64,000 bases of DNA from contig JBHGNT010000015.1 of NCBI GenBank assembly GCA_043228905.1, forward strand, positions 5,952,001 to 6,016,000, in the 5' to 3' direction. Shown here in pieces: positions 8,718 through 60,123 of the stretch. The notes beneath the pieces were generated by a model. That model ran no database searches, was not told where the DNA came from, and worked only from the letters and a program-made list of their open reading frames with translations. This DNA comes from Azolla caroliniana. Lineage: Eukaryota; Plantae; Polypodiophyta. The position numbers and the translations under genes are program-made. How positions within the stretch are numbered: the first letter of the stretch is position 1; every line of letters begins with the position of its first letter.

Positions 8718-9152
8718 TGTCATTAATACATAAACATCATGACTTCACATGGGCTTGAACTCAAGACCTTGTAATACATAATCAAGAACCCAACCATTAA
8801 GATAGCCTATGTTCATATGGATGATAAAAGCTACTTCTTGTAATACATTGATTATTGTAATTACTCTAAAACATTCTAGAACATTCTAGAATATCCTAGA
8901 ACATCTTAGAATATCCTAGAACATCTTAGAATATTCTAGGTCTAGAACATTATAGAAATCTCTAGCCTGTTCTATACATGTATTCTCAAATCAATTCGAA
9001 TCAACACCAGTCTTAAGCTCTCATTGCCTATCTTGTATCCATTCTCATTCTACTTTAATACATTCATTCTTCTCTTATCATTTCATTTCTCTCTTCTTGT
9101 GATCTCTTTATATCTTTCTTCTTTCACTCTATCTTTTGTCTTGGTTCTGATA
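8718..9152 (+). repeat. 5' LTR of element B (3' boundary approximate)
   Basis: First ~180 nt align with 21149-21330. Confidence 0.75.
8871..8950. promoter_or_regulatory. Heat-shock-element-like 10-bp tandem array in LTR B
   Basis: TTCTAGAACATTCTAGAA (perfect alternating nTTCn/nGAAn) followed by degenerate 10-bp units; repeated at 21303-21329. Confidence 0.7.
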
Positions 9153-10155: not shown

Positions 10156-10997
10156 TGTCGTAGTGTAGGTTGCACACTATGTGGAAATTATATTTTTGTC
10201 CCTCCGGATAAAGAATGGAGTGCTCGGTGAGAACCGGAAGAAAACGGCATACCGGCAAGGAGGAAAACGGCATACCGGCAAGGAGGAAAAACGGCATACC
10301 GGCAAGGAGGAAAACGGCATACCGGCAAGGAAGAGCCGGATAAAGAGACATAAATGTAAAAAAAAAAGAAAGAAATACTCACTACTGCGCAGGGCGTGAT
10401 TCAAACCCTGCACCTCCACGTTGACAAACCCCAACCTTACCATTACATTAACTTATCTTAAGTGTTTTAAATATAGATTTAATAAGTATAAGACCTTTAT
10501 TTATGCATACCTTTATTAAAAGGTAAATCGTGTATTTTTTTAATATATGAAAAAGAAAAACGCGAGACACTAAAAATAACTCATGCACATCTAGCGTGCA
10601 TGAGCCCTATACTTAGGAAATAAAAAAGCATCACATGCACATTTTAGTGGACATGAACACTTTTTGTAAAAAAAAAAAAAAAGCATGAAGCCATGCTTAG
10701 CTCTTCTTTCCTTATATAAGAAGGAGAGAAATATGTAAAGGGTTGTTGATTATTGGGATTAAGGATTAATTAATACAAAAATTATTCGTGGGATTCACGA
10801 TTTATACATCTACTTCTCTCTTAACACCCTAAGTACCAATTAATATAGTATACTAGTGTGATTCACGAGTTTCTTATCTTTCTCTTTGCTATTTACTCAT
10901 AATTACTCTCTATCTCACGAACTTCTTTTCTCCTAGTCCAAGACCTCTGTGGTTCCCACCCGACTCACGCAACGATCCGGAGCCGAAAGGCACGACA
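10156..10997 (+). repeat. A1 5' LTR (842 bp; 4 copies of a 23-24 bp repeat)
   Basis: Near-identical to 16665-17530. Confidence 0.97.
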
Positions 10998-11001
10998 CAG
11001 T

Positions 11002-11019
11002 TGGTGAACCCGACGTGAA
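11002..11019 (+). promoter_or_regulatory. Primer-binding site, tRNA-Trp
   Basis: TGGTGAACCCGACGTGAA complements the 3' end of plant cytosolic tRNA-Trp as I recall it (..UUCACGUCGGGUUCACCA). Confidence 0.85.
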
Positions 11020-11035
11020 GACGGGTGGCAAGGAG

Positions 11036-13075
11036 ATGGAGGCTCAACAAGCTAACAATATGATGGCGATGTTCGAACGGATGCTTCAAGAACAACGCAC
11101 GATGTCGGAGATTTCGGCATCAGTAGAGCGGCTCGTGCAACGCAACGGGCAATTTAATGGTAAGGATGTGTCGCGATATTTGCAGGACTACAAGGCGGAG
11201 ATGCTCCGGTGCCGGGCTTCGGAAGGACTGCAAGTGACATCCTTTAACCGGGTGGCGACCGACGGGCTTCAAGGGAGTATCCACGGGTTGCAACAACAAA
11301 ATCCGACGTGGGAAGCATTCGAGGAGGCGTTAAAGACCACGTTTGCCATCGAGGACTCCTCCAAGGCAACGCGGAGGGGATTCGAGGATTGGGTGGAAAC
11401 GTCAGGTAAGGGGTTGAAGGTCCTCGAAGTGTTTTCGACATTCGAAAGTCGGTTCGGGAGGCTGTCCGCGAGAGATCAAACTATTCTTGCGCCGGACAAA
11501 GTCATCATGTTTTTGCGAGCTGTGGACGTCCGGGACCGGAAAGATCTCGGAGTGCTTCTTGAGGACACGACCACCGAAAGCGGCCTCACCGAAACATGGG
11601 AAAGCGTGCGGGATATCGTCGCGCGGTACACGAAGAGGGGGCAATGGCTTGCCAACGAAGAAAAGAGGGTTTCGGAACCGATTCCGAAACCGAGAACGGG
11701 ACTGGAAGACCATCAACCGAGGGCTCGGGAGATTACGGCCGAGAAGGGAGTCGACGCGTCTACGGTGGAGCAGCTGCTGAAGGAGATGGAGAATCTAAAG
11801 ATCGCGATCGTGAAGAAGTCGGATGACCGCCCCACAAGCTCCAAATATACGGATCGACGGTGCATATGGTGCGATAGCGCCGAACACGATCGGAGGGATT
11901 GCGACGACCATAAGGAGGCGCTACGACGGGATCTCATCTACTACGAGGGAAACCGGATTCATTCGATGGACTCTCGGAAGCCACTCCGACCGAACTTCCG
12001 GAAAGGCGGCATGAAGAAGGTGCTCGAGGAGGAGTTAGCGGCAAGAAGCAACTATGCGACAACCGCGGGAATATGTGTCGGGGAGTCATCGGGAGCGAAG
12101 GCGTCTTTCTGGCCGGAGGTGCTAGGAAACACCGAGAAAACCGACTCCAACGATATCCGAAACACCGCGGAAGGCGTCCGGGAAGCTACGGGATGGGAAT
12201 GCCCTGTCGATAAGAATAGCATATACGCCCTGTGTCAATTACATGAGGTGTATGTGGACGAGAAACGACGGCGCACGGAGGATGCGGCCGGACCATCGAA
12301 GATACCGGAAAGCTGGAACTCCGGAGGTAAGGGAAAAGAAAAGGCGACTCCGGCATTCAAGCTCGCCTCGGACATAGAACAACAAACCGACTTGAAAAGA
12401 GTGTTCGAGGAAAGAATCTTGGATAGCCGGGTAGATTTTTCGCTGCGGGAACTACTCGGAATAGCGAAGAAGGAGTTTCACGATCTTCTCGTGGATCTCG
12501 TAAAAAGGAAGAGACAAAGTACGGAGGAAAATGCTCCAAGGGTGAATGCAAATACCGTTTCAATGAACGACACCGAAGTGGAAGGCGAAATTCCGAACTC
12601 CCACTATACAAGGCCACACTGGGCACGTGCGACTACGGAGACTCCGGTCTGAATCGGCAACATCAAAGAACCCGTGCTAGCATTGATTGATCACGGATCG
12701 GAGATCAACTTGATGTCCAAGGAGTTCTACCGAAAGGGGAAGTGGCCTATAAACACCAACCATGGATGGAAGATTCGGGCAGCCACGAAAACGACAGAAG
12801 ACCTATTTGCGGCTTGTCCGGATGTGACGGTAAAGATCGGGGATGTCGAAATTGACCAAAATTTCTTTGTGCAGGATGAGGTTTCACATTCTGTCATCCT
12901 CGGCCAACCCTTTATCACGGCTTCACGGATGGAGACGAAGGTGCTCGATAGTGGTGCGGCTTTTGCGCGAATTCGGAGCCAAAACGGAGGGAAATCCGTC
13001 CAATTCCTAACGGTGCCGGCAAACCACGAAAGGAACAAGAGGGAACTCTTGTCCCAAGTGAGAATGGATTTTTAA
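11036..13075 (+). CDS. A1 gag-protease ORF with an in-frame TGA at 12650-12652
   Basis: First ATG after the PBS; CX2CX4HX4C knuckle (CIWCDSAEHDRRDC); protease motif ALIDHGSEIN in the same frame after the stop. Confidence 0.88.
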
Positions 13076-13129
13076 AGCGGACTGTTGCGGAGTGGGGAAG
13101 TGATAGTCCGAGAAGCCCTGATACCCCAT
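13066..13129 (+). promoter_or_regulatory. -1 programmed ribosomal frameshift signal (G GAT TTT + H-type pseudoknot)
   Basis: Slippery heptamer before TAA; stem 1 13078-13088/13100-13110; stem 2 13092-13097/13124-13129; -1 frame open into pol. Confidence 0.85.
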
Positions 13130-16100
13130 ACAGGAAGAAAACTCTCGGAGCAAAACAAGTACGAATCGGCCCGGATGGGGCATCTACGTACACGGCCGTA
13201 ACCGGAGGAATGAAGAAACAATACCGACAAGTGGAGGATAAGTTACGGTCGGCATCAATAATAAAAGAAGACGAAGAAATCGTGGGAGTGATCGAGGAAG
13301 TGTTCTATGGGAATACACTACAACGGCTTGAAGAGCTTGCGGAAGATAAAAGCCAAGGGAACCGGGTAGTCCCGGTGGAATCGGTCGAGATGTACGAGAT
13401 CGTTGCGAAAATGGGGCCGGATGCGCTCCGCAAAGAAGAAGCAATGGTAAGTACGAAATACAAGACCGTGGAGAAGAAGGTGAAACCGGCCGTGGGACCA
13501 CTACCCGCCGATAGCGAACAAAAGAAGAAAGAAGTCTCGGGAGATCCGACACTTCGGAAGTCCGTGGATATCGGACATGCCTTCACGGATGAGACCCGGA
13601 AGAAACTTCGGATCGGTGGAGGTGGGTTCCTATTACAGAAAGAAGAGGAACGGTTTCGCGAGATGTTGGAGCAACACGGCAAAGCGTTTGCATTTACATC
13701 AAGGGAGATAGGGTGCGTCGATCCGAGAATAGTGGAGCCGATGGTGATCTTTACGATTGACCATGTACCGTGGAATCTGAAGCCGATTCCGGTGCCACGG
13801 GCGCATATTCCGAAAGTCATCGACTTGCTCAAGGAGAAGGTGGCGATGGGGATTCTAGAGCCATCAAGTGCTCCGTACTCAAATCGATGGTTTACGGTTC
13901 CGAAGAAGAATGGGTCACTCCGATTTATCCAAGACTTGCAACCGGTGAATAAGGTCACGATCCGGAACTCGGGAGTCGGTCCGATAGTGGACGAATTTGC
14001 GGAAGCTTTTGCCGGACGTGCGATATACTCCATCGGGGACCTATACTCGGGGTATGACCAATTCCAACTAGCCGTGGAGAGCCGAGACATCACTACCATG
14101 CGGACACCGATAGGACTAGTTCGAATGTGCACACTACCACAAGGAGCGACAAACTCGGTTGCTCATATGATGAACGCGATGAACAAGGTGCTTCGAGATT
14201 GCATCCCGGAGATAACGATGCCGTTTCTAGATGACATTCCGATGAAAGGATGCGCGGTGGAAGAAAAAGATGAGACTATGGATGATTGGGGATGCCGAAA
14301 GTTCGTGGTCGACCATATTCATGATTGCGAGAAAGTGTTGCGAAAGCTAGAAGATGTGCACCTAACACTTTCCGGGGAGAAATCGGCATTCGGGCAAGAA
14401 GAAATATTGGTGGTCGGACATCTATGTGGACCCTACGGCCGAAGACCGTCACCAACAAAGATCGATGCGATTCAAGCTATGAAGGAAGTATGTGAGTCAA
14501 CATCGGAAGTCCGAAGGTTTCTGGGTGCGTGTGCATTCTATCACATATGGATTCCGCACTATGCACATATAGCGGACCCGCTCTATCACTTGTTGCGGAA
14601 AGGTAAGAAATTCGAGTGGAAACCGGAACACACTAAAGCCATGAGGAAGCTCAAGAAGACACTATGGAGGGCGGAATCACTTAAGAAGCCAAGCTACGAG
14701 CGGCCAATCATAGTAACGGTTGATACAAGTCCAACCGGTATCGGGTGGGTCATCAATCAAGCCGACTCGGATGGTTCGCGGTATCCGATCCGATTTGGAG
14801 CAAAGGTCCTCAACGAAAGGCAACGCGGATATGCACAAGTCAAAAGAGAATTGTGGGGAGTCGTGTCGGCGATAAAATCGGATCGGGATTATTTGATCGG
14901 AGCTGAAGTGGTGATCGAGACGGATTGTCTTCCGATACTCGGGATGATGCGGTGTTGTACGATACCGGATGTGGCTATGCTAAGGTGGATTGCATATGTC
15001 AAGTCACTTAATCCGGAGGTTCGACACATCTCGGGGAAGGACAACGCGGTAGCGGACATGTTATCGAGGGCGCGGTTTGAAGATGACATAACCGAATCAG
15101 ATAATGAAGAAGTTTCCGAAGACTACTTCACGTCAGAACACATATGCCGAGTGAACGTGATCCGAGAATTCCGGGAAGAAGAATACGAGGGGGAAACCTT
15201 GATGATCGGGAAGATGCTACAAGAGGTCGAGGATTCAACCAATGATAAAGGAAGGAGAGCCGAGATCCGAAGGAAGAAGAGGCAAGTCCAAAAGTTCTTC
15301 TTGGAAAACGGTTTAATATGGAGGACGCCGAAAAGACCGGATGGGATACCACTTCGAGTAGTCGGGACGAAAGAGCAACGAAACCGGATAATGTCCGAGT
15401 TCCACGAATCCGATTGGGCTGGACATCGAGGAACATGGGCAACTTTTGTGAAAATCAAGCAAAGGTATTGGTCGAAGAACATGTATAAAGATGTCGCGGA
15501 GTTCACAGAAAGCTGCGAGAAATGTCAAGTCTACTCCGGGGTCCGACACCGAGATGAGCTGCATCCGACATTCTCACCGACAATCAACTTCAAGTGGATG
15601 GTCGACATTGTAGCTATGCCGACCGGGATTGGACAAAAGAAATACTTGGTGTTAGCTCGAGAAGATCTCACAAACCAAGTTGAAGGTCGAGCGCTTCGGA
15701 GGAAAACGTGTGCCGCGGTGTGCCAATTTCTTTTGGAAGAAGTGTTTTGTAGGTACGGCTGCGTAGGACAAGTGATTGCGGACCGGGGAGAACTCGACTC
15801 GGACAAAGCTAGGGGATTCTTCGCCAAACATGGAGTTCGGTTAACGTTGACAACGGCCTACAATCCGGAGGCCAACGGGAAGATCGAACGAGGACATAGT
15901 CCGATCGTGAAAGCACTTGCGAAGGCATGCGACGGAAGGGTGAAGGATTGGCCACAAATGCTTCCGTATGCACTATGGGCGGATCGGACGACGCATAGCT
16001 CCGTGACCGGTTATATGCCGGCAGAACTCATGACCGGACAAGCACCGGTAATGCCAACGGAAACCGCAATCGCAACATGGACAATACTACCGTGGAAGGA

Positions 16101-16677
16101 AGAGATGAGCCGGGAAGAACTACTAGCGGTCCGGATACGACAACTGGAGGGAAGACCGAAAGATGTAGCGGAAGCGTCACGCCGACAACAAGAAGCACGG
16201 TTCCGGAACAAAAGCCGGTTCGACACAAAGCACCGACTACGACCGAGGAGGATTGAAGAAGGAGATTGGGTGATCGTCTATGATAGTAGCTTGGACCATC
16301 AACATACAACGATGCGGAAATTCGCGAAAAGGTGGTTCGGGCCGTACGAGGTTCGGAAGGTCTTCGACAACGGGACGTACCGACTGTCCGAGTTGGATGG
16401 AACAATACTACGAGTGCCTATAGCCGGGAAGCGGGTGAAGATTTTCAAGAAGCGGACCGACGACAAACCTTATGTGATCCAAGTCGAGGCCGACAACGAG
16501 GAGCAATCGGACGAAGACCACAATGATGCGGGAAGCGAAGAAAGTGGATTACAACTCATAGTCGACATAAGGGAAGAATCGGAGGAAGCTTCGGATGAAG
16601 ACGGATACGAGGAATCAAGAACTTCGGCACATACCGGAGGATGTGCGGGTTTGGAGGGGGCGAGTGTCGTAGTGTAG
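13066..16677 (+). CDS. A1 pol (RT, RNase H, integrase), uninterrupted
   Basis: LPQGATNS..FLDD RT, VDTS RNase H, GHRG..CEKCQ and YNPEANGKIER integrase; acidic tail, no chromodomain. Confidence 0.95.
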   Translation, partial: GFLKRTVAEWGSDSPRSPDTPYRKKTLGAKQVRIGPDGASTYTAVTGGMKKQYRQVEDKLRSASIIKEDEEIVGVIEEVFYGNTLQRLEELAEDKSQGNRVVPVESVEMYEIVAKMGPDALRKEEAMVSTKYKTVEKKVKPAVGPLPADSEQKKKEVSGDPTLRKSVDIGHAFTDETRKKLRIGGGGFLLQKEEERFREMLEQHGKAFAFTSREIGCVDPRIVEPMVIFTIDHVPWNLKPIPVPRAHIPKVIDLLKEKVAMGILEPSSAPYSNRWFTVPKKNGSLRFIQDLQPVNKVTIRNSGVGPIVDEFAEAFAGRAIYSIGDLYSGYDQFQLAVESRDITTMRTPIGLVRMCTLPQGATNSVAHMMNAMNKVLRDCIPEITMPFLDDIPMKGCAVEEKDETMDDWGCRKFVVDHIHDCEKVLRKLEDVHLTLSGEKSAFGQEEILVVGHLCGPYGRRPSPTKIDAIQAMKEVCESTSEVRRFLGACAFYHIWIPHYAHIADPLYHLLRKGKKFEWKPEHTKAMRKLKKTLWRAESLKKPSYERPIIVTVDTSPTGIGWVINQADSDGSRYPIRFGAKVLNERQRGYAQVKRELWGVVSAIKSDRDYLIGAEVVIETDCLPILGMMRCCTIPDVAMLRWIAYVKSLNPEVRHISGKDNAVADMLSRARFEDDITESDNEEVSEDYFTSEHICRVNVIREFREEEYEGETLMIGKMLQEVEDSTNDKGRRAEIRRKKRQVQKFFLENGLIWRTPKRPDGIPLRVVGTKEQRNRIMSEFHESDWAGHRGTWATFVKIKQRYWSKNMYKDVAEFTESCEKCQVYSGVRHRDELHPTFSPTINFKWMVDIVAMPTGIGQKKYLVLAREDLTNQVEGRALRRKTCAAVCQFLLEEVFCRYGCVGQVIADRGELDSDKARGFFAKHGVRLTLTTAYNPEANGKIERGHSPIVKALAKACDGRVKDWPQMLPYALWADRTTHSSVTGYMPAELMTGQAPVMPTETAIATWTILPWKEEMSREELLAVRIRQLEGRPKDVAEASRRQQEARFRNKSRFDTKHRLRPRRIEEGDWVIVYDSSLDHQHTTMRKFAKRWFGPYEVRKVFDNGTYRLSELDGTILRVPIAGKRVKIFKKRTDDKPYVIQVEADNEEQSDEDHNDAGSEESGLQLIVDIREESEEASDEDGYEESRTSAHTGGCAGLEGASVVV

Positions 16678-17530
16678 GTTGCACACTATGTGGAAATTAT
16701 ATTTTTGTCCCTCCGGATAAAGAATGGAGTGCTCGGTGAGAACCGGAAGAAAACGGCATACCGGCAAGGAGGAAAAACGGCATACCGGCAAGGAGGAAAA
16801 CGGCATACCGGCAAGGAGGAAAAACGGCATACCGGCAAGGAGGAAAACGGCATACCGGCAAGGAAGAGCCGGATAAAGAGACATAAATGTAAAAAAAAAA
16901 GAAAGAAATACTCACTACTGCGCAGGGCGTGATTCGAACCCTGCACCTCCATGTTGACAAACCCCAACCTTACCATTACATTAACTTATCTTAAGTGTTT
17001 TAAATATAGATTTAATAAGTATAAGACCTTTATTTATGCATACCTTTATTAAAAGGTAAATCGTGTATTTTTTTAATATATGAAAAAGAAAAACGCGAGA
17101 CACTAAAAATAACTCATGCACATCTAGCGTGCATGAGCCCTATACTTAGGAAATAAAAAAGCATCACATGCACATTTTAGTGGACATGAACACTTTTTGT
17201 AAAAAAAAAAAAAAAGCATGAAGCCATGCTTAGCTCTTCTTTCCTTATATAAGAAGGAGAGAAATATGTAAAGGGTTGTTAATTATTGGGATTAAGGATT
17301 AATTAATACAAAAATTATTCGTGGGATTCACGATTTATACATCTACTTCTCTCTTAACACCCTAAGTACCAATTAATATAGTATACTAGTGTGATTCACG
17401 AGTTTCTTATCTTTCTCTTTGCTATTTACTCATAATTACTCTCTATCTCACGAACTTCTTTTCTCCTAGTCCAAGACCTCTGTGGTTCCCACCCGACTCA
17501 CGCAACGATCCGGAGCCGAAAGGCACGACA
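16665..17530 (+). repeat. A1 3' LTR (866 bp; 5 repeat copies)
   Basis: Matches the 5' LTR apart from about 3 transitions and one repeat unit. Confidence 0.97.
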
Positions 17531-21164: not shown

Positions 21165-21330
21165 ACATCATGGCTTCACTTGAGCTTGAACCCAAGAACT
21201 TATAATACATAATCAAGAACCCAACCATTAAGATAACCTTTGATCATATAAGATGACAAAAGCTACTTCTTATAATACACTGATTATTGTAAATACTCTG
21301 AAACATTCTAGAACATTCTAGAATATCCTG

Positions 21331-30800: not shown

Positions 30801-31614
30801 CGAAACGGTTCACCCGCAAAGAGAAGGGAAAGAAGAAGATGCCGGAATTCGAAACCGGCAATGAGGAGTCGGATCAGTGTGCATCCAACTCCGGCAAGGA
30901 GAAAGGCGGATCTTCGGCAACGAAAACCGAACCGGCCAAGAAGGGCCTCAAACCGGGTAACGGTGAGTTACGTTGTTCCACCCGTCAAGCGGTATGGGTA
31001 CAATGAGTACATGGCGCATCACTATGCGTACATGACTAAGGTGGCGGAAGTGCGTGAGCCGGAGAGCTACGCTGTCGTGCCTTTCGGCTCCGGATCGTTG
31101 CGTGAGTCGGGTGGGAACCACAGAGGTCTTGGACTAGGAGAAAAGAAGTTCGTGAGATAGAGAGTAATTATGAGTAAATAGCAAAGAGAAAGATAAGAAA
31201 CTCGTGAATCACACTAGTATACTATATTAATTGGTACTTAGGGTGTTAAGAGAGAAGTAGATGTATAAATCGTGAATCCCACGAATAATTTTTGTATTAA
31301 TTAATCCTTAATCCCAATAATCAACAACCCTTTACATATTTCTCTCCTTCTTATATAAGGAAAGAAGAGCTAAGCATGGCTTCATGCTTTTTTTTTTTTT
31401 TTTTACAAAAAGTGTTCATGTCCACTAAAATGTGCATGTGATGCTTTTTTATTTCCTAAGTATAGGGCTCATGCACGCTAGATGTGCATGAGTTATTTTT
31501 AGTGTCTCGCGTTTTTCTTTTTCATATATTAAAAAAATACACGATTTACCTTTTAATAAAGGTATGCATAAATAAAGGTCTTATACTTATTAAATCTATA
31601 TTTAAAACACTTAA

Positions 31615-31711
31615 GATAAGTTAATGTAATGGTAAGGTTGGGGTTTGTCAACGTGGAGGTGCAGGGTTCGAATCACGCCCTGCGCAGTAGTGAGTATTTC
31701 TTTCTTTTTTT
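31615..31711 (+). ncRNA. tRNA-like Pol III module in family A LTR, antisense to the element (present in all four A LTRs)
   Basis: A-box-like TAATGTAATGG 31622-31632, B-box GGTTCGAATC 31665-31674 at tRNA spacing, T7 run ending 31711; stems do not pair as a tRNA. Confidence 0.55.
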
Positions 31712-31880
31712 CTTACATTTATGTCTCTTTATCCGGCTCTTCCTTGCCGGTATGCCGTTTTCCTCCTTGCCGGTATGCCGTTTTTCCTCCTTGCCGGTAT
31801 GCCGTTTTCTTCCGGTTCTCACCGAGCACTCCATTCTTTATCCGGAGGGACAAAAATATAATTTCCACATAGTGTGCAAC

Positions 31881-34800
31881 CTACACTACGACACTCGCCC
31901 CCTCCAAACCCGCACATCCTCCGGTATGTGCCGAAGTTCTTGATTCCTCGTATCCGTCTTCATCCGAAGCTTCCTCCGATTCTTCCCTTATGTCGACTAT
32001 GAGTTGTAATCCACTTTCTTCGCTTCCCGCATCATTGTGGTCTTCGTCCGATTGCTCCTCGTTGTCGGCCTCGACTTGGATCACATAAGGTTTGTCGTCG
32101 GTCCGCTTCTTGAAAATCTTCACCCGCTTCCCGGCTATAGGCACTCGTAGTATTGTTCCATCCAACTCGGACAGTCGGTACGTCCCGTTGTCGAAGACCT
32201 TCCGAACCTCGTACGGCCCGAACCACCTTTTCGCGAATTTCCGCATCGTTGTATGTTGATGGTCCAAGCTACTATCATAGACGATCACCCAATCTCCTTC
32301 TTCAATCCTCCTCGGTCGTAGTCGGTGCTTTGTGTCGAACCGGCTTTTGTTCCGGAACCGTGCTTCTTGTTGTCGGCGTGACGCTTCCGCTACATCTTTC
32401 GGTCTTCCCTCCAGTTGTCGTATCCGGACTGCTAGTAGTTCTTCCCGGCTCATCTCTTCCTTCCACGGTAGTATTGTCCATGTCGCGATTGCGGTTTCCG
32501 TTGGCATTACCGGTGCTTGTCCGGTCATGAGTTCTGCCGGCATATAACCGGTCACGGAGCTATGCGTCGTCCGATCCGCCCATAGTGCATACGGAAGCAT
32601 TTGTGGCCAATCCTTCACCCTTCCGTCGCATGCCTTCGCAAGTGCTTTCACGATCGGACTATGTCCTCGTTCGATCTTCCCGTTGGCCTCCGGATTGTAG
32701 GCCGTTGTCAACGTTAACCGAACTCCATGTTTGGCGAAGAATCCCCTAGCTTTGTCCGAGTCGAGTTCTCCCCAGTCCGCAATCACTTGTCCTACGCAGC
32801 CGTACCTACAAAACACTTCTTCCAAAAGAAATTGGCACACCGCGGCACACGTTTTCCTCCGAAGCGCTCGACCTTCAACTTGGTTTGTGAGATCTTCTCG
32901 AGCTAACACCAAGTATTTCTTTTGTCCAATCCCGGTCGGCATAGCTACAATGTCGACCATCCACTTGAAGTTGATTGTCGGTGAGAATGTCGGATGCAGC
33001 TCATCTCGGTGTCGGACCCCGGAGTAGACTTGACATTTCTCGCAGCTTTCTGTGAACTCCGCGACATCTTTATACATGTTCTTCCACCAATACCTTTGCT
33101 TGATTTTCACAAAAGTTGCCCATGTTCCTCGATGTCCAGCCCAATCGGATTCGTGGAACTCGGACATTATCCGGTTTCGTTGCTCTTTCGTCCCGACTAC
33201 TCGAAGTGGTATCCCATCCGGTCTTTTCGGCATCCTCCATATTAAACCGTTTTCCAAGAAGAACTTTTGGACTTGCCTCTTCTTCCTTCGGATCTCGGCT
33301 CTCCTTCCTTTATCATTGGTTGAATCCTCGACCTCTTGTAGCATCTTCCCGATCATCAAGGTTTCCCCCTCGTATTCTTCTTCCCGGAATTCTCGGATCA
33401 CGTTCACTCGGCATATGTGTTCTGACGTGAAGTAGTCTTCGGAAACTTCTTCATTATCTGATTCGGTTATGTCATCTTCAAACCGCGCCCTCGATAACAT
33501 GTCCGCTACCGCGTTGTCCTTCCCCGAGATGTGTCGAACCTCCGGATTAAGTGACTTGACATATGCAATCCACCTTAGCATAGCCACATCCGGTATCGTA
33601 CAACACCGCATCATCCCGAGTATCGGAAGACAATCCGTCTCGATCACCACTTCAGCTCCGATCAAATAATCCCGATCCGATTTTATCGCCGACACGACTC
33701 CCCACAATTCTCTTTTGACTTGTGCATATCCGCGTTGCCTTTCGTTGAGGACCTTTGCTCCAAATCGGATCGGATACCGCGAACCATCCGAGTCGGCTTG
33801 ATTGATGACCCACCCGATACCGGTTGGACTTGTATCAACCGTTACTATGATTGGCCGCTCGTAGCTTGGCTTCTTAAGTGATTCCGCCCTCCATAGTGTC
33901 TTCTTGAGCTTCCTCATGGCTTTAGTGTGTTCCGGTTTCCACTCGAATTTCTTACCTTTCCGCAACAAGTGATAGAGCGGGTCCGCTATATGTGCATAGT
34001 GCGGAATCCATATGTGATAGAATGCACACGCACCCAGAAACCTTCGGACTTCCGATGTTGACTCACATACTTCCTTCATAGCTTGAATCGCATCGATCTT
34101 TGTTGGTGACGGTCTTCGGCCGTAGGGTCCACATAGATGTCCGACCACCAATATTTCTTCTTGCCCGAATGCCGATTTCTCCCCGGAAAGTGTTAGGTGC
34201 ACATCTTCTAGCTTTCGCAACACTTTCTCGCAATCATGAATATGGTCGACCACGAACTTTCGGCATCCCCAATCATCCATAGTCTCATCTTTTTCTTCCA
34301 CCGCGCATCCTTTCATCGGAATGTCATCTAGAAACGGCATCGTTATCTCCGGGATGCAATCTCGAAGCACCTTGTTCATCGCGTTCATCATATGAGCAAC
34401 CGAGTTTGTCGCTCCTTGTGGTAGTGTGCACATTCGAACTAGTCCTATCGGTGTCCGCATGGTAGTGATGTCTCGGCTCTCCACGGCTAGTTGGAATTGG
34501 TCATACCCCGAGTATAGGTCCCCGATGGAGTATATCGCACGTCCGGCAAAAGCTTCCGCAAATTCGTCCACTATCGGACCGACTCCCGAGTTCCGGATCG
34601 TGACCTTATTCACCGGTTGCAAGTCTTGGATAAATCGGAGTGACCCATTCTTCTTCGGAACCGTAAACCATCGATTTGAGTACGGAGCACTTGATGGCTC
34701 TAGAATCCCCATCGCCACCTTCTCCTTGAGCAAGTCGATGACTTTCGGAATATGCGCCCGTGGCACCGGAATCGGCTTCAGATTCCACGGTACATGGTCA

Positions 34801-35492
34801 ATCGTAAAGATCACCATCGGCTCCACTATTCTCGGATCGACGCACCCTATCTCCCTTGATGTAAATGCAAACGCTTTGCCGTGTTGCTCCAACATCTCGC
34901 GAAACCGTTCCTCTTCTTTCTGTAATAGGAACCCACCTCCACCGATCCGAAGTTTCTTCCGGGTCTCATCCGTGAAGGCATGTCCGATATCCACGGACTT
35001 CCGAAGTGTCGGATCTCCCGAGACTTCTTTCTTCTTTTGTTCGCTATCGGCGGGTAGTGGTCCCGCGGCCGGTTTCACCTTCTTCTCCACGGTCTTGTAT
35101 TTCGTACTTACCATTGCTTCTTCTTTGCGGAGCGCATCCGGCCCCATTTTCGCAACGATCTCGTACATCTCGACCGATTCCACCGGGACTACCCGGTTCC
35201 CTTGGCTTTTATCTTCCGCAAGCTCTTCAAGCCGTTGTAGTGTATTCCCATAGAACACTTCCTCGATCACTCCCACGATTTCTTCGTCTTCTTTTATTAT
35301 TGATGCCGACCGTAACTTATCCTCCACTTGTCGGTATTGTTTCTTCATTCCTCCGGTTACGGCCGTGTACGTAGATGCCCCATCCGGGCCGATTCGTACT
35401 TGTTTTGCTCCGAGAGTTTTCTTCCTGTATGGGGTATCAGGGCTTCTCGGACTATCACTTCCCCACTCCGCAACAGTCCGCTTTAAAAATCC
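31881..35492 (-). CDS. A2 pol (RT, RNase H, integrase), uninterrupted
   Basis: 1155-aa ORF differing from A1 at about 4 residues; entered via -1 slip at 35486-35492. Confidence 0.95.
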   Translation of the reverse strand, partial: GFLKRTVAEWGSDSPRSPDTPYRKKTLGAKQVRIGPDGASTYTAVTGGMKKQYRQVEDKLRSASIIKEDEEIVGVIEEVFYGNTLQRLEELAEDKSQGNRVVPVESVEMYEIVAKMGPDALRKEEAMVSTKYKTVEKKVKPAAGPLPADSEQKKKEVSGDPTLRKSVDIGHAFTDETRKKLRIGGGGFLLQKEEERFREMLEQHGKAFAFTSREIGCVDPRIVEPMVIFTIDHVPWNLKPIPVPRAHIPKVIDLLKEKVAMGILEPSSAPYSNRWFTVPKKNGSLRFIQDLQPVNKVTIRNSGVGPIVDEFAEAFAGRAIYSIGDLYSGYDQFQLAVESRDITTMRTPIGLVRMCTLPQGATNSVAHMMNAMNKVLRDCIPEITMPFLDDIPMKGCAVEEKDETMDDWGCRKFVVDHIHDCEKVLRKLEDVHLTLSGEKSAFGQEEILVVGHLCGPYGRRPSPTKIDAIQAMKEVCESTSEVRRFLGACAFYHIWIPHYAHIADPLYHLLRKGKKFEWKPEHTKAMRKLKKTLWRAESLKKPSYERPIIVTVDTSPTGIGWVINQADSDGSRYPIRFGAKVLNERQRGYAQVKRELWGVVSAIKSDRDYLIGAEVVIETDCLPILGMMRCCTIPDVAMLRWIAYVKSLNPEVRHISGKDNAVADMLSRARFEDDITESDNEEVSEDYFTSEHICRVNVIREFREEEYEGETLMIGKMLQEVEDSTNDKGRRAEIRRKKRQVQKFFLENGLIWRMPKRPDGIPLRVVGTKEQRNRIMSEFHESDWAGHRGTWATFVKIKQRYWWKNMYKDVAEFTESCEKCQVYSGVRHRDELHPTFSPTINFKWMVDIVAMPTGIGQKKYLVLAREDLTNQVEGRALRRKTCAAVCQFLLEEVFCRYGCVGQVIADWGELDSDKARGFFAKHGVRLTLTTAYNPEANGKIERGHSPIVKALAKACDGRVKDWPQMLPYALWADRTTHSSVTGYMPAELMTGQAPVMPTETAIATWTILPWKEEMSREELLAVRIRQLEGRPKDVAEASRRQQEARFRNKSRFDTKHRLRPRRIEEGDWVIVYDSSLDHQHTTMRKFAKRWFGPYEVRKVFDNGTYRLSELDGTILRVPIAGKRVKIFKKRTDDKPYVIQVEADNEEQSDEDHNDAGSEESGLQLIVDIREESEEASDEDGYEESRTSAHTGGCAGLEGASVVV

Positions 35493-37522
35493 ATTCTCAC
35501 TTGGGACAAGAGTTCCCTCTTGTTCCTTTCGTGGTTTGCCGGCACCGTTAGGAATTGGACGGATTTCCCTCCGTTTTGGCTCCGAATTCGCGCAAAAGCC
35601 GCACCACTATCGAGCACCTTCGTCTCCATCCGTGAAGCCGTGATAAAGGGTTGGCCGAGGATGACAGAATGTGAAACCTCATCCTGCACAAAGAAATTTT
35701 GGTCAATTTCGACATCCCCGATCTTTACCGTCACATCCGGACAAGCCGCAAATAGGTCTTCTGTCGTTTTCGTGGCTGCCCGAATCTTCCATCCATGGTT
35801 GGTGTTTATAGGCCACTTCCCCTTTCGGTAGAACTCCTTGGACATCAAGTTGATCTCCGATCCGTGATCAATCAATGCTAGCACGGGTTCTTTGATGTTG
35901 CCGATTCAGACCGGAGTCTCCGTAGTCGCACGTGCCCAGTGTGGCCTTGTATAGTGGGAGTTCGGAATTTCGCCTTCCACTTCGGTGTCGTTCATTGAAA
36001 CGGTATTTGCATTCACCCTTGGAGCATTTTCCTCCGTACTTTGTCTCTTCCTTTTTACGAGATCCACGAGAAGATCGTGAAACTCCTTCTTCGCTATTCC
36101 GAGTAGTTCCCGCAGCGAAAAATCTACCCGGCTATCCAAGATTCTTTCCTCGAACACTCTTTTCAAGTCGGTTTGTTGTTCTATGTCCGAGGCGAGCTTG
36201 AATGCCGGAGTCGCCTTTTCTTTTCCCTTACCTCCGGAGTTCCAGCTTTCCGGTATCTTCGATGGTCCGGCCGCATCCTCCGTGCGCCGTCGTTTCTCGT
36301 CCACATACACCTCATGTAATTGACACAGGGCGTATATGCTATTCTTATCGACAGGGCATTCCCATCCCGTAGCTTCCCGGACGCCTTCCGCGGTGTTTCG
36401 GATATCGTTGGAGTCGGTTTTCTCGGTGTTTCCTAGCACCTCCGGCCAGAAAGACGCCTTCGCTCCCGATGACTCCCCGACACATATTCCCGCGGTTGTC
36501 GCATAGTTGCTTCTTGCCGCTAACTCCTCCTCGAGCACCTTCTTCATGCCGCCTTTCCGGAAGTTCGGTCGGAGTGGCTTCCGAGAGTCCATCGAATGAA
36601 TCCGGTTTCCCTCGTAGTAGATGAGATCCCGTCGTAGCGCCTCCTTATGGTCGTCGCAATCCCTCCGATCGTGTTCGGCGCTATCGCACCATATGCACCG
36701 TCGATCCGTATATTTGGAGCTTGTGGGGCGGTCATCCGACTTCTTCACGATCGCGATCTTTAGATTCTCCATCTCCTTCAGCAGCTGCTCCACCGTAGAC
36801 GCGTCGACTCCCTTCTCGGCCGTAATCTCCCGAGCCCTCGGTTGATGGTCTTCCAGTCCCGTTCTCGGTTTCGGAATCGGTTCCGAAACCCTCTTTTCTT
36901 CGTTGGCAAGCCATTGCCCCCTCTTCGTGTACCGCGCGACGATATCCCGCACGCTTTCCCATGTTTCGGTGAGGCCGCTTTCGGTGGTCGTGTCCTCAAG
37001 AAGCACTCCGAGATCTTTCCGGTCCCGGACGTCCACAGCTCGCAAAAACATGATGACTTTGTCCGGCGCAAGAATAGTTTGATCTCTCGCGGACAGCCTC
37101 CCGAACCGACTTTCGAATGTCGAAAACACTTCGAGGACCTTCAACCCCTTACCTGACGTTTCCACCCAATCCTCGAATCCCCTCCGCGTTGCCTTGGAGG
37201 AGTCCTCGATGGCAAACGTGGTCTTTAACGCCTCCTCGAATGCTTCCCACGTCGGATTTTGTTGTTGCAACCCGTGGATACTCCCTTGAAGCCCGTCGGT
37301 CGCCACCCGGTTAAAGGATGTCACTTGCAGTCCTTCCGAAGCCCGGCACCGGAGCATCTCCGCCTTGTAGTCCTGCAAATATCGCGACACATCCTTACCA
37401 TTAAATTGCCCGTTGCGTTGCACGAGCCGCTCTACTGATGCCGAAATCTCCGACATCGTGCGTTGTTCTTGAAGCATCCGTTCGAACATCGCCATCATAT
37501 TGTTAGCTTGTTGAGCCTCCAT
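35483..37522 (-). CDS. A2 gag-protease ORF with in-frame TGA at 35906-35908
   Basis: Translation identical to A1, including the stop. Confidence 0.88.
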
Positions 37523-40500
37523 CTCCTTGCCACCCGTCTTCACGTCGGGTTCACCAACTGTGTCGTGCCTTTCGGCTCCGGATCGTTGCGTGAGTCGGGT
37601 GGGAACCACAGAGGTCTTGGACTAGGAGAAAAGAAGTTCGTGAGATAGAGAGTAATTATGAGTAAATAGCAAAGAGAAAGATAAGAAACTCGTGAATCAC
37701 ACTAGTATACTATATTAATTGGTACTTAGGGTGTTAAGAGAGAAGTAGATGTATAAATCGTGAATCCCACGAATAATTTTTGTATTAATTAATCCTTAAT
37801 CCCAATAATCAACAACCCTTTACATATTTCTCTCCTTCTTATATAAGGAAAGAAGAGCTAAGCATGGCTTCATGCTTTTTTTTTTTTTTTTTACAAAAAG
37901 TGTTCATGTCCACTAAAATGTGCATGTGATGCTTTTTTATTTCCTAAGTATAGGGCTCATGCACGCTAGATGTGCATGAGTTATTTTTAGTGTCTCGCGT
38001 TTTTCTTTTTCATATATTAAAAAAATACACGATTTACCTTTTAATAAAGGTATGCATAAATAAAGGTCTTATACTTATTAAATCTATATTTAAAACACTT
38101 AAGATAAGTTAATGTAATGGTAAGGTTGGGGTTTGTCAACGTGGAGGTGTAGGGTTCGAATCACGCCCTGCGCAGTAGTGAGTATTTCTTTCTTTTTTTC
38201 TTACATTTATGTCTCTTTATCCGGCTCTTCCTTGCCGGTATGCCGTTTTCCTCCTTGCCGGTATGCCGTTTTTCCTCCTTGCCGGTATGCCGTTTTCCTC
38301 CTTGCCGGTATGCCGTTTTTCCTCCTTGCCGGTATGCCGTTTTCTTCCGGTTCTCACCGAGCACTCCATTCTTTATCCGGAGGGACAAAAATATAATTTC
38401 CACATAGTGTGCAACCTACACTACGACAACGCAGAAGCAGCCAAGGACGCAAATTGGTGTGCCGCTATGGAGGAAGAAATGCGGGCACTTGATGTCAACA
38501 AGACATGGGACCTGGTTGACCCTCCTCGTCACTGTAAACCGATCGGATGCGAGTGGATATACAAGGTAAAGTACAATGTCGACGGTTCTGTTAACCGGTA
38601 TAAAACCCGGTTAGTGGCGAAGGGATACGCGCAGACCCACGGAATCGACTATGATGAGACCTTCGCTCCTGTAGGGAAGATGACGACGGTTCGAGTGGTG
38701 TTGGCGGTTGCTGCGGCAAGGGGATGGCATCTTCATCAGATGCATGTGAAGAATGCATTTCTTCAAGGTGATCTTGAAGAAGAAGTCTTTATGACTCAGC
38801 CTCCCGGTTTTCAATCGGAGATGAACAAGTCGGCAGTATGCCGACTGAAGAAGTCGTTGTACGGCCTAAAGCAAGCCCCATGAGCTTGGAATGCGAAGAT
38901 CACGCATCGGTTGCGTAAGATGGGGTTTGTGGCCTCCAAATCGGATCTTCATTGTTCATCCAACAAGGCTCACCCAATCCAGTATGTTGTATGTTGATGA
39001 TCTAGTCATCACCAGACCGGGTGTTCCAGAAATCAACCGCATCAAGACCCAATTGTCAGACGCATTTGAGATGAAGGATCTGGGGGACCTTCATTATTTT
39101 CTAGGGATTGAGGTGATCCGAACCTCGGACGGCATATTGCTCTCACAACGACATTACGTCTTGAGTATGTTGTACAAGTTCGGCATGACAGAATGTCGAC
39201 CTGTATCCACACCCTTGTACCGGAACAAGAAGCTTCGTCCCAACTCCGGATCGGCCTGCAATGAGCAACGTTTCTGACAAATTGTCGGAAGCCTTATTTA
39301 CTTGACTATCACGTGACCCGACATCAGCTATCCGGTCGGGATGATAAGTTAGTTCATGCAGAAGTCGACCATGGAGCACCTTCAGTGCGCGCACTATTAG
39401 TGGCACGAAGGACCGGGGACTGTTATACTGGTGAGGTATACCCAAAGAGCTTGTCGGTTACACGAATGCCGACTGGGCTGGCGATGCATCAGATCGTCGA
39501 TCAACCTCTGGTTACATGTTTTCCCTAGGTAGCGCGGCTGTTGCGTAGAGCAGCAAAAAGCAGCCAACAGTTGCTCTGTCGAGCACTGAGGCTAAGTATC
39601 GTGGTGCTACCCTTGCCACCTGTGAAGCCATTTGGCTTCGGCGACTACTGCGAGACTTGCGGATCGAGGTACCAACCCCGATCCCGATTTATTGTGATAA
39701 CATCAGCAGCATGCAGCTCGTGGTGTTCCACACTCGCACGAAGCACATAGAAGTGCATTATCACTTTGTGCGTGAGTGGGTCCTGAGCGGTGAAGTTGAA
39801 CTACGGTATGTTCACACGGATCGGCAAGTTGCCGATATCTTCACCAAGCCGCTCGGATCGGACAAGTTGCAGCACTTTGCCGACATGCTTGGTGTTCAGC
39901 ATCTCGACGTGCCGCACTTGAGGGGGAGAAGAAGGGGCAAAGACACCGTTGGAACGGGCAAAGGCAAAGAGACTGTTGCCGACACCGGTAAGGGAAGAAC
40001 CCGAAGAGGGGAAGACAAGGAGGCTGAAGAAGCTGAGGATGGAAGCAAGGCCAAGACACGGACGTGGTCTGATGTGGTGAAGGGCCTTAAACCGAAAGAC
40101 GAGTTGGAGGATACCGACTCGGACAAGAGCTGGAACGAATCGGGGACAGCCGATTCGGACCAACAGACGGATCCAGATGATTCAAATCAACTGGAGGCCA
40201 AGCAGACACGGATCCAACGAAAGTCAATGCCATCGCGGAGGAACCGATGGATCGATAAGTGTTGGAATCATAGTAGTGAAGGAGCTGAGAGGGGCCTATT
40301 GAGCAGACATACCGATCGAGAAGGTCGAGGCGCGCAGAACAAGAGGGGTCGCGGCAAACAGAACCGGACCGGACGAGGAGCGCGAGCAAGGCAGAGCGAC
40401 GCCACGAGAAGTCGGTTGGAAGAACCGACTACCACAGAGACTGGCACTAGGATCCAACCTCAAGTTGAGCTTGAGGGGGAGTGTTGAGTGGCAAGCTCAA

Positions 40501-43539: not shown

Positions 43540-45591
43540 TCAGATGATATGATGATGCACTAATCTTGAAGAATTCAATGAGCTGTGGAGGAAGTTGTAA
43601 CGTTGCCAAACTTGGTTGTCGGCGAAGTTGAAAGCACGCTCCATTTGGGAAAGACAAGTGGCTAAAGGGTAGCTCCCTTGTCCATTTTTTCCACATGGCT
43701 TGCAACCCACAAAATGAGTAATAAATGGCCACTTCTCCCCGACACTAGAGTCCCAACCACATCCATGATATTTCTTAGCACCATCTATTACCAATGAGAC
43801 AAAAGGTGGTTCAATATCATGTTGGCTATTTAATTAGTGGCCATCATACACATAATAGTATTAGTATCAATAGTAAAATTGAATGATTTGTGATTATATC
43901 AATAACATTATCTACTTTGATGTCAATACGAGAAGAATATCCTTATGGGCCAACATTAATAGTATTGATACCATAGATATTGGTGTATGAACATGTATTG
44001 AGGATATCAAGATGGGATCATCATGATTCTAGATCATATATCAACACTAGCACAAAATATTCTAGGTCAATTATTGTTAATGTTATATTTTAATATGAAC
44101 CTTGTTAGATATATTAGAACAACAAAATATTATTCAAATCAATATTTGCATATTCTATATACTTAGTAAGCTAGTAGCATGAGGGTTGAGTATAGTACCA
44201 ATGGTTTCGTTATGTAAAGTCTTCTTGGTCTCCAACATATCATCCATCATCTTGTCAAAAGTTTCAACTATTGGCACCCAATACCCATGTAGACAATAGC
44301 TTGATTCCATGTAGACTTTGTTTCCCCAAACTTCTCGTTGTTTTATTAGCATATACACTAGTGCCGATTGATCATCGGCTTCGAACTCTGGTCGATCACT
44401 GAGGAACTTGGATAACTCTTTACCAACTTCATTCCTAATTGACCCCTTTCGTCCCATCTTGGCCCATTCATCAAGAAAATCAAGTGACCATTGACAATTC
44501 CTTAGGAAAAAGATCCCGGCATTAAGACCTAACCATGACTTCTTCACATACACGTTCTGCTCCCACCCAGGCACAACGAGGTTGTAGTCCTTGTAACGTT
44601 CCATGGGGAGTTTGAACTCCATGTCAGTGATGAGGGCGTCACTATCAATCCACCAGAGCCATTCAACATCCGGGTGTGCTAGCATGAGCTCTCGGAGGAG
44701 CGGGAGCTTCGACCAGAACCCCGACATTTCGTCGGACAGGTGGGCGAGGTTGTAGAACATGGTGATGCCAGTATGGAGGGTGCAATAGTCCATCTTGTTT
44801 TTGATGGATTTCAATAAGAAGTGATCCCCGCTAGGGTTCTCGCATGCAAAGGGGACGGAGCCAGTGACCATTAGGATGGGCGGGCTCGTTACTTTCGAGG
44901 CCTCGTGGTCATTGTGCCCATGCCCATCTCGTTTCCCATGTGTCCTACCAAGTTTCCTTTGCTCATCCCAATCCAGGACTTTAGGGCCCAGACTAAACTT
45001 TAAAGGTGTTGAAGAAGCATTAAATGATTCCTCATTTCTAATTTCCCCTTCACCCTCTGCCTTCTTTATCTCCTCCCTAATCACTTCCCCCTCCTTAATC
45101 TTCCCTATCTCCTTCCTAGTATCCCCCTTAATCACCCCTGCCTCCTTCCTAATCTCCTCCTTAATCACCCCTGCCTCCTTCTTAATATCCTCCTTAATCA
45201 CCCCTCCTTCCTTCCTAATATCCTCCTTAATCACCCCTCCTTCCTTCCTAATATCCGCGCCCATCAGTTGTGTTCCACCCCCTCTGAGCTTCCTGACAAC
45301 CTTGGATTGATCCGCCTCAAGATTGGCCGACACAATCTTCGTGTCGGGCTTATCTCTCTGGGCAGTTAATTGAATGGGCTCAGATTTGATGCTACTGTAC
45401 GTCTCCCTAATCACGCTCTTAACACCGTCATTAGCAGGATGATTATGTCTAACCCCCACCCCTTTGAACAGCAGCAGAGTGATTAATCCACACAGCGCCG
45501 TGAGGATTACTGTCTCCACGCAAGTTTTGCATCTGCTTCTGTTGTGCATAGTTAAACTACTCCTATGACTGGCTAACCCCCGCCTCATCAT
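43540..45591 (-). CDS. Glycosyltransferase family 34 (xyloglucan 6-xylosyltransferase-like), two exons 45591-44199 and 43784-43540, ~545 aa
   Basis: N-terminal TM helix, FWSKLPL, WWIDSDA (DxD), LNAG..RNCQWSL, EADDQSAL, WPFITHFVGCKPCG; GT..AG phase-1 intron 44198-43785 keeps the frame. Confidence 0.92.
45060..45255 (-). repeat. 33-bp coding tandem repeat (IRKEGGVIKED-like) in the GT34 stem region
   Basis: About 5-6 progressively diverged units. Confidence 0.9.
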
Positions 45592-58176: not shown

Positions 58177-60123
58177 TGTCGTGGAGGATTCCGGTTACCG
58201 GGAGAGAAGTCCATCGAATGCGTGTGAACATGGGTGTGTAAGTATGCACATGAATTGAGCATAATGTATAAAAGAATGTAAATATAAAGTATTTACATGT
58301 GCTAGGTAGAGTGTTTAATAGTACTTTTAAGATCCCTTGAAAGGAGGGAAATTAAGTGAGTGATGGGAGGAGATCGAGGAGAGGATCTTTAACACAAGCA
58401 GTTGTAATAATGGCCTTATGGAGGCTAAGGGAGGGATCGATCGTTTTGGAGGAGAAGATGTTGTCGGTTTGTGCTTTGAGTTGTGGTTTGCTGCTTTGCT
58501 CATTTGGTTAGGGAGGAGGAGGCCTTTGATCGCATAGGAAGCCCGTGTGCTCCCGACCAGAGGGTCTGTGTGCGTGCGTGCGAAGCTCAAAGTTCTGTCA
58601 CCGGCCAAGTATGGCTATATTCTTTTCTCTGTTTAATCAAATATTATTGGTATTGTTGTATCCGACTCTCTTTTGTGTTGTGTTGACATCCGTTCCTCTA
58701 TTTCTGTCTCCGGGAGGTGCCTCTTCTCCCGCTTCCGTTCTTGCATATCTACTTGAGTCTCCAAGCCCGTGTGCTCATTGTCCAGAATCTGGCGATAGGC
58801 CTAGATTTAAATATAGGTTTATGAGCCTGTGTGTTCTATAAAGTTCTCTGGGAACTGAGTTGGGTAGGACACTGCAAGCTTAGTGGCCTCTCTTCCTCCT
58901 ACTCCCTAGTCCAAGACCCCCTGTGGTCCCACCCAAGCCAACACGCACACGTGGAAATCCGTGCCATCTCTGGTCAACCCGACGTGGAAGGGTGGCAAAG
59001 GAGTTCAAGATGAGGGGAGGCGAACTGGCAGAAACAATGGTGGCCGCCGTAGACTGCCTAGTGAACGCTCGAGAGAGTTCAGAGGGGCTAGATAGAGCCA
59101 TCGAAACAATAGTCGACACAACGGGTTGATTTAACGGAAAGGGTGTCACAAACTATTTGGAGGCCTTCAAGGCCAAAATGTTGATGAGAGACATTCTGGA
59201 TGACTGATAGTTGTCCGCGTTTCCTCGGGTCATCACGCCGAGCATCCACGCTAAAGTGCTCGAGATGTAGGCCGACATTCGTAATGGGTCAGAGTTTGAG
59301 GAGCGACTCCTTGAAAGGTATGGTTTGGACGACTTGTTCCAGTTATCGAAGAGGGATCTTATGGAGTGGGTCGAGCTCCCCAAAAAAAGAAGGAACACAT
59401 CGACGCTTCTCTAGGTGTTCGAGAAATGATTTGCGTGACTGTAGGCACTGGACCGGACACTGCTTGACATGGTCAAAGTTCTTCTTTTTAGCAAATTGGT
59501 TGATCCGCTTGATCGGGAGAAGGTTGGTCTTCTCTTGGAGACGGATGAAGGGCTCATGGCTAATTGGGTTGTGGTTAAAAGGGTTTGCAACCGTTTCAAC
59601 AAACGGTGCGAATGGAACGATGAGAGGTCGTTGTCGGCTGGCCCCTCCTAAGAGGATGACATGAGAGGTGCCGAGTCGGCCGGATGAGACCCGAAGATGA
59701 CTCGAGTTGGGCCCGGTTATGACCAACGTGGTCGAGGAACCATCTGGGGGCACGACGCTGGAAGAGCTGTCAAAGACGGTGCATGATCTCTAGATCGCTC
59801 AGGCTCAGAGGGATGGTGGGGCTCAATCGCGTGATCGCCGCCCGCCCAGTGACCTCATGTGCATGTGGTGCAACGGTGTCAGCCACATTCGGAGAGACTG
59901 CACTGACTTCGCCGAGGTGCTAAGGAATAACGTGGTGTACCTTAGAATGGACAAGTACACTCGAGATGAATACCAGACGAGGTGACATGAAGAGGTTGAC
60001 GGAGGAGGCTACGCCACGACATGTCGAAGTCATCCAGTACTCAGCGTCAATTGGTATCCGGGTCAGAGGGGAGAATGCCAAGGTAGGAAAGGGTGTCAGA
60101 TTCTGGCCAGTAGTGTTGGAAGA
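58177..60123 (+). mobile_element. Decayed Ty3 element C, relative of family A (5' LTR 58177-58966, Trp-like PBS 58971-58989, gag remnant)
   Basis: Starts TGTCGT; LTR end CCTAGTCCAAGACC.CTGTGGT.CCACCC matches A; gag FNGKGVTNYLEAFKA parallels A FNGKDVSRYLQDYKA. Confidence 0.85.

Follow-up and report, generated by a model that had tools for sequence, protein, structure and literature searches.

Sequences derived from tRNA genes are known from the LTRs of TRIMp3 elements (Helenus, Cassandra and Ajax), in which the A and B boxes are conserved and no functional tRNA is encoded (Kojima, 2024, PMC10886601). The Pol III promoter is thought there to transcribe the element; the same account, which among the Repbase LTRs with tRNA-like pieces deals with TRIMs only, argues that the autonomous partners depend on Pol II and that LTR sequence of this kind is improbable in them (PMC10886601). 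Foamy viruses, which are autonomous retroelements, carry A/B-box Pol III units with T-run terminators in U3, encoding structured pri-miRNAs of demonstrated function (Kincaid, 2014, PMC3993851). At the fission-yeast centromere, a host tRNA gene at a fixed locus serves as a chromatin barrier that requires the A box and Pol III, its isotype and orientation being irrelevant (Scott, 2007, PMC2040200). For plants, a review of barriers cites, in the sections used here, tDNA/TFIIIC barriers from yeast and animals only (PMC9540200).

The window, that is, the whole 64,000-nt stretch of Azolla caroliniana DNA analysed here, is a nest of LTR retrotransposons around one GT34 gene, in which a 33-bp tandem repeat (45090–45289) encodes an 11-residue charged repeat in the stem region. 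A search with GT34 points to a land plant, with a liverwort as the best named match. One of the elements, family A, is present in two full copies that are 98.8% identical: E2 (7356 bp; 31073–38428, minus strand; TSD ACGC; gag at 35906–37621, pol at 31881–35606) and E1 (7375 bp; 10156–17530, plus strand; TSD ACGT), the latter nested in the second carrier lineage, family B. Both 7.4-kb copies are intact, autonomous Ty3/gypsy elements: their gag (571 aa) and pol (1241 aa) frames are open, and their LTRs, of 821–868 bp, have TG..CA ends. A stop and about 300 nt lie between gag and pol in both (window 10937–16677), and Pfam searches returned no protease match in the gag or pol frame. Many loci share one conserved tRNA-type PBS, which in family A may be of the tRNA-Trp type, judging from the table of Phygy elements. 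Phygy elements have 4-bp NCGN TSDs and, in 81% of cases, a tRNA-Trp PBS (Neumann, 2019, PMC6317226), and the PBS of E2 (37540–37556, minus strand) was typed from the same source. By the features described for this non-chromovirus clade, family A is probably of the Phygy type: it shares the NCGN TSDs, which mark insertion into CG sites, the short length with a polyprotein filling the internal part and the lack of a chromodomain. By contrast, its length of 7.36–7.38 kb falls slightly below the Phygy range of 7656–9968 bp, and Pol III modules in LTRs are not mentioned in the portion of the Phygy description used here (PMC6317226). The closest named relatives of family A are those of Riccia (about 60%). 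A decayed remnant of another Phygy-type element, with a similar PBS at 58971, occupies window positions 58300–60100, and its LTR contains no module of the kind described below.

The 3′ LTR of E2 (31073–31893, minus strand) carries in its U3 a predicted tRNA-derived type-2 Pol III unit extending from tRNA position 1 to a T-run (31615–31711). Manual reading and motif scanning both place the A box with A21 at 31622–31634 on the plus strand (T8 at 31622, A14 at 31628, G18G19 at 31631–31632, A21 at 31634), followed by an anticodon-type loop, TTGTCAA (31645–31651), and by AGGT (positions 44–47) and the B box (52–61) at 31657–31674, with AGGTG at 31657–31661 and G53 to C61 at 31666–31674; the latter two blocks are predicted TFIIIC contact positions (cf. 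PMC11724288). A T7 run at 31705–31711, the predicted Pol III terminator, begins 19 nt past tRNA position 73. The exact tRNA register, the antisense position in U3 (E2, with pol at 31881–35606, lies on the minus strand and the module on the plus strand) and the T-run about 20 nt downstream, all asserted in the original prediction, are thus borne out. Inward from the LTR start, the module is followed by a cluster of CATGCA motifs, including a palindrome at 31470–31490 that recurs in L002, L004 and L036, and by a TATA-like box (31350–31359, minus strand), the putative Pol II promoter of the LTR, with the module 263 nt upstream of it. Further copies of the module are found in the 5′ LTR of E2 (38103–38199, plus strand) and in both LTRs of E1, at 16891–16990 (minus strand), with both boxes intact, and at 10358–10457 (minus strand). 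The predicted occurrence in all four LTRs therefore holds, but the copy cited in its support (10450, minus strand; 10357–10450) is the one whose B box is broken by C56T. The T-run varies from T7 to T10 among these copies, and the four LTRs, being 94–99% identical to each other, amount to a single observation.

Family A resembles Helenus and other TRIMp3 elements in having tRNA-derived LTR sequence with A and B boxes that is not complementary to the PBS. Helenus, however, is non-autonomous and measures 311–1263 bp, whereas family A is 7.4 kb long with intact gag and pol (PMC10886601). Furthermore, unlike the promoter of TRIMp3, the unit of family A faces outward, with a T-run marking its end, and a TATA-like Pol II promoter is present as well. 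With the U3 cassettes of foamy viruses, family A shares the autonomous setting, the A/B-box units and the T-runs, whereas the tRNA register and the lack of a conserved fold set it apart from them (PMC3993851).

The A- and B-box scan used textbook consensus motifs, not trained on the sequences under study. Within the window, it returned nine matches, six of them in LTRs of families A and B, compared to 0–6 (mean 1.7) in each of 12 shuffles. Among the remainder, a match at 18256 (minus strand) lies in the pol coding region of family B, while the matches at 62475 and 44661 score lower; all three were taken as chance. The pattern within the window is only modestly above chance, so the case rests on related families. 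An integrase-anchored search of metagenome contigs yielded 351 candidate stretches, of which 137 were confirmed and the best 80 used. Clustering of these loci at 85% integrase DNA identity gives 32 families, and in 22 of them the LTR sequence suffices for assessment. Where the sequence continues for 350 nt or more behind the integrase (54 loci), this region of 44,288 nt contains 22 A+B matches (15 antisense, 7 sense), versus 2 in 178,428 nt of pol, and each of 20 shuffles of the region contained 0–2. Among the families represented in the best 80 loci, the antisense module is found in 8 of the 22 assessable ones, a sense module in six and either in ten; several carry two or three copies, and tandem copies occur. 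The remaining 12 lack a module at the scan threshold, although L010, one of them, has a degenerate copy, and include contigs whose names give a high coverage (L027, L042 and L032), indicating that the module is dispensable. Neither relatives nor pattern matches were found in viral contigs or in prokaryote genomes.

Carrier integrase genes are as little as 64% identical to that of family A at the DNA level, and the LTRs of the most distant carriers align to those of family A only in patches of 17–34 nt, often corresponding to the module or the palindrome. The carriers are scattered on the integrase tree, a quick and partly unresolved version that does not settle single versus repeated origin, so LTR exchange may explain part of the sharing. 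In L001–L004, integrase DNA is 91–99% identical to that of the window, yet the LTRs are far more different, that of L002 aligning to the window LTR only in blocks of 71–85% identity, a pattern that suggests fast LTR turnover or exchange. Family A is very abundant in four DNA runs from three organisms. Among 40 of the 82 variant rows from these runs, those within the module affect positions 10, 12, 13, 37, 52, 62 and 63, and none falls on an invariant box position. As for presumed RNA runs, X19 contains one low-depth contig across the module, in a type of data that shows neither strand nor transcript ends; X23 and X24 do not cover the module, and X18 is probably DNA.

Several lines of evidence indicate that what is conserved in the module is a promoter. 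When 40 spacing values were allowed, the best A box stood at tRNA spacing (33–35) for 18 of 22 perfect B boxes, and in 13 of these no spacing beyond the range scored equally well. Applied to 50 loci, a leave-one-family-out matrix from which the boxes were excluded recovered an intact B box (at least 8/9) in 11 of the 13 loci scoring at least 12, as opposed to 1 of 37 others, and also picked up the degenerate module of L010. In four clade-A LTR variants fetched via the integrase rather than the scan (L001, near-identical to the window, was dropped), 13 of 14 box positions are invariant versus 26 of 61 others (Fisher P=5e-4); positions 41–48 are 92% identical, whereas positions 22–40, at only 53%, have diverged like the flanks (0.53). 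The box invariance and the matrix result together imply that the antisense modules are homologous and that their boxes have been kept. Thus, the excess conservation of the boxes, whose absence would have told against the original prediction, is present, and the homologous antisense module in eight of the 22 assessable families rules out a recent SINE insertion in one subfamily. Dereplication reduced 33 modules to 27 (17 antisense, 8 sense and 2 of the family B type), and in the 17 antisense modules A21 and A44G45G46T47, which the scan does not score, are 94–100% conserved. In at least one copy from seven of the eight antisense families, the first T4 is located 20–35 nt downstream of C61 (background, 0.11 per site); T4 is missing in family B and in most sense copies. 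C56T is carried by L003 (coverage 104 in its name), L079 and the 5′ LTR of E1. The B box reads TTCAA in 17 of the 33 modules and TTTGA in two, counts that are biased by the scan and by shared descent; they are compatible with selection against C56T and are not counted as evidence. The conserved pattern, comprising the A box, AGGT at 44–47, the B box and fixed spacing, follows the known footprint of TFIIIC. In yeast, τB touches not only the B box but also bases upstream; altering +44 to +47 affects transcription, and the length of the spacer matters while its sequence does not (PMC11724288). The conserved type-2 promoter with a terminator-like T-run is thus supported across related families, and it is very probably maintained by selection as a TFIIIC/Pol III promoter.

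As a tRNA, by contrast, the module has decayed. In the 17 antisense modules, base pairing in the acceptor, D, anticodon and T stems does not exceed that of permuted halves, confirming the predicted loss of stems, and ten different ‘anticodons’ occur; neither a cloverleaf with paired stems nor a stable anticodon is present, and for the module ARAGORN reported no tRNA and Rfam no match. The GTC underlying the proposed Asp identity is found in one module of 17, and with anticodon, stems and spacer randomised, such a call is meaningless. The GCAGGG/CCCTGC hairpin included in the original prediction does form, but outside the tRNA register; the 107-nt unit folds like its shuffles (z=0.04), and the copy at 38110 in the 5′ LTR of E2 has a change that weakens the hairpin. 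The module is best read as a promoter relic and not as a tRNA.

The sense modules listed by the scan and the module of family B score below zero on the antisense matrix (the score of L020, its register unchecked, was left out), which points to separate captures for most sense modules and for that of family B. An origin of the family A module from tRNA-Trp, suggested by five bases that the window copy has in common with the PBS, was rejected, as other families differ at these bases. Sense A+B modules without a T-run lie late in the LTR at L018:3674, L019:7001 and 266, L022:786 and L026:1205. Sense modules stand behind the TATA-like box where one was found and would read toward the PBS; in L018, L019, L022 and L026 this arrangement equals the TRIMp3 configuration and could correspond to Pol III transcribing the element. 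In most antisense carriers, a CATGCA/TGCATG palindrome or cluster separates the module from TATA, the module lying between the LTR start and this cluster at about 150–260 nt from TATA. The motif, presumably RY-like, was noted at window 31470–31490 and in L002, L004, L036, L018, L019 and L026, and also occurs in some non-carriers; many non-carriers have a short U3, with TATA near 220–260.

Family B (8718 to about 21330), which hosts E1, is a decayed chromovirus with a chromodomain (PF00385, E=6e-11), and no TGG-type PBS is found between its LTR and gag. Both features of Tcn1 chromoviruses, the chromodomain and the lack of a tRNA PBS, are thus found in family B, a candidate member of that clade. 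The predicted parallel module is indeed present, with an origin separate from that of the family A module: an antisense A+B module at 8752–8804 (minus strand) in the 5′ LTR, with no T4 within 70 nt, and a copy with C61T at 21183–21235 (minus strand) in the 3′ LTR. Just inside the module, the LTRs of family B contain tandem repeats (8865–8960 and 21300–21330) with triples of the GAAnnTTCnnGAA type, which we take to be heat-shock elements; such triples are absent from six other LTR regions of the window, making family B a candidate heat-inducible chromovirus. A remnant of a family B-type module was also observed in an unrelated Copia-like stretch (L043:12005–12076).

At the outer margin of the LTR promoter, the module probably attracts TFIIIC, TFIIIB and Pol III. 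The resulting nucleosome-free, Pol III-occupied block about 150–260 bp upstream of TATA would shield the 5′ LTR against heterochromatin or read-through arriving from the flank, and a short antisense transcript of about 95–105 nt would be a by-product. In yeast, the A box is needed for TFIIIB loading and not for TFIIIC binding (PMC11724288); the retention of both the A box and the T-run therefore suggests a complete Pol III unit and not just a site for TFIIIC. As the body of the RNA is unconstrained and orientation and copy number vary, the DNA-bound complex is more likely to be the object of selection. A barrier would fit the intact, tRNA-spaced A and B boxes, their occurrence in either orientation and in tandem, and the several independent origins, and the needs of the fission-yeast tDNA (A box, TFIIIC and Pol III, irrespective of isotype and orientation) match the conservation seen here, although the module is a non-decoding relic carried by a mobile element (PMC2040200). 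It is plausible that the two carrier lineages of the window insert into silent chromatin, given the NCGN targets of one and the chromodomain of the other. Against a barrier stand the 12 module-free families, the C56T copies and the lack of T4 in family B; possible costs are a 3′ LTR copy in the path of Pol II and an antisense RNA that would pair with genomic RNA. We put the probability of a chromatin-barrier or anti-silencing role at roughly 0.45. Only tentatively do we extend it to a broader view, in which LTR retrotransposons of seed-free plants that enter silent chromatin took up tRNA promoters time and again and use them as portable Pol III/TFIIIC insulators protecting the Pol II promoter of the element; this would be an undescribed anti-silencing strategy.

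Selection might act instead on the antisense Pol III RNA, as a decoy, siRNA source or self-regulator, for which the foamy-virus U3 miRNA cassettes offer a precedent (PMC3993851). Such a role would account for the joint retention of A box and T-run, and in 7 of 27 modules a hairpin around the B box outperforms those of flank shuffles (p≤0.1); however, spacer and stems are unconserved, fold z-scores of 10 sequences range from −2.3 to +0.6 with no shared fold, and sense and terminator-less copies occur, so we consider it unlikely. Equally unlikely, in our estimate, is that the Pol III unit tunes the adjacent Pol II promoter directly and independently of chromatin, as an activator or as a brake through a tDNA position effect. 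Neighbouring tDNAs can repress Pol II genes, with position effects of 2- to 60-fold cited (PMC2040200), in mouse cells Pol III influences Pol II transcription in its vicinity (PMC9703767), and the divergent arrangement, about 150–260 nt from TATA, would suit such an effect, but sequence does not separate it from the barrier model and direct support is absent.

That the modules are neutral relics, tRNA-derived SINEs or pseudogenes hitch-hiking in LTRs, would agree with their absence from 12 of 22 families, with the broken boxes and with the statement that ‘not a few’ Repbase LTRs hold tRNA-like pieces (Kojima, PMC10886601); one SINE-like, tRNA-derived unit lies in flanking DNA (L030:3080). Apart from this unit and the L043 remnant, the modules in the window and the loci were found in LTRs, not as free SINE copies. 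The box-specific invariance (P=5e-4), the persistence of the module in families with integrase DNA 64–68% identical and LTRs aligning only in short patches, and, on the weak measure of contig depth, the lack of any peak at the module compared with the remaining LTR in the four DNA runs make neutrality quite improbable. Very unlikely is a landing pad on which Pol III complexes at LTRs attract Ty3-like integration: a Copia element does start, at 21331, 96 nt upstream of T8 in the module of the family B 3′ LTR, but it lacks a TSD and is not followed by a continuation of family B, and E1 and E2 sit at NCGN sites in coding regions of other elements with no module adjoining. Finally, pairing of the antisense tRNA-like sequence in genomic RNA with the primer tRNA, as proposed for HIV-1 U3 (cited in PMC9757044), which would aid minus-strand transfer, has the polarity of the PBS, the U3 location and 7 of 15 matches between the window copy and the PBS-derived primer end in its favour, but appears largely refuted for positions 59–76 and far-fetched overall, because the PBS is near-constant across families, yet modules match the primer 3′ end at a mean of 4.1/15, the chance level, 15 of 17 have A or G at position 59 where the primer has T, sense copies cannot pair, and family B has no tRNA-type PBS behind its 5′ LTR.

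The claim of an undescribed transposon strategy has to be narrowed, since Pol III units in LTRs are already known from Helenus, Cassandra and foamy viruses; only the present layout appears undescribed. Our search of the openly accessible literature found no report of conserved divergent tRNA-register promoters in LTRs of autonomous plant elements, though Repbase and the supplements of Kojima may list such LTRs. Sense-oriented modules already present in the LTRs of autonomous relatives would be a plausible origin of TRIMp3. If the proposed barrier role is correct, a transposon would shield itself from silencing by a cis element borrowed from tRNA genes and not by a protein of its own, and the module would offer a first point of access to tDNA-type barriers in plants, whose working could be tested directly through gene targeting in a moss. 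Genomes in which the family is abundant would have gained thousands of TFIIIC sites and, possibly, short antisense RNAs.
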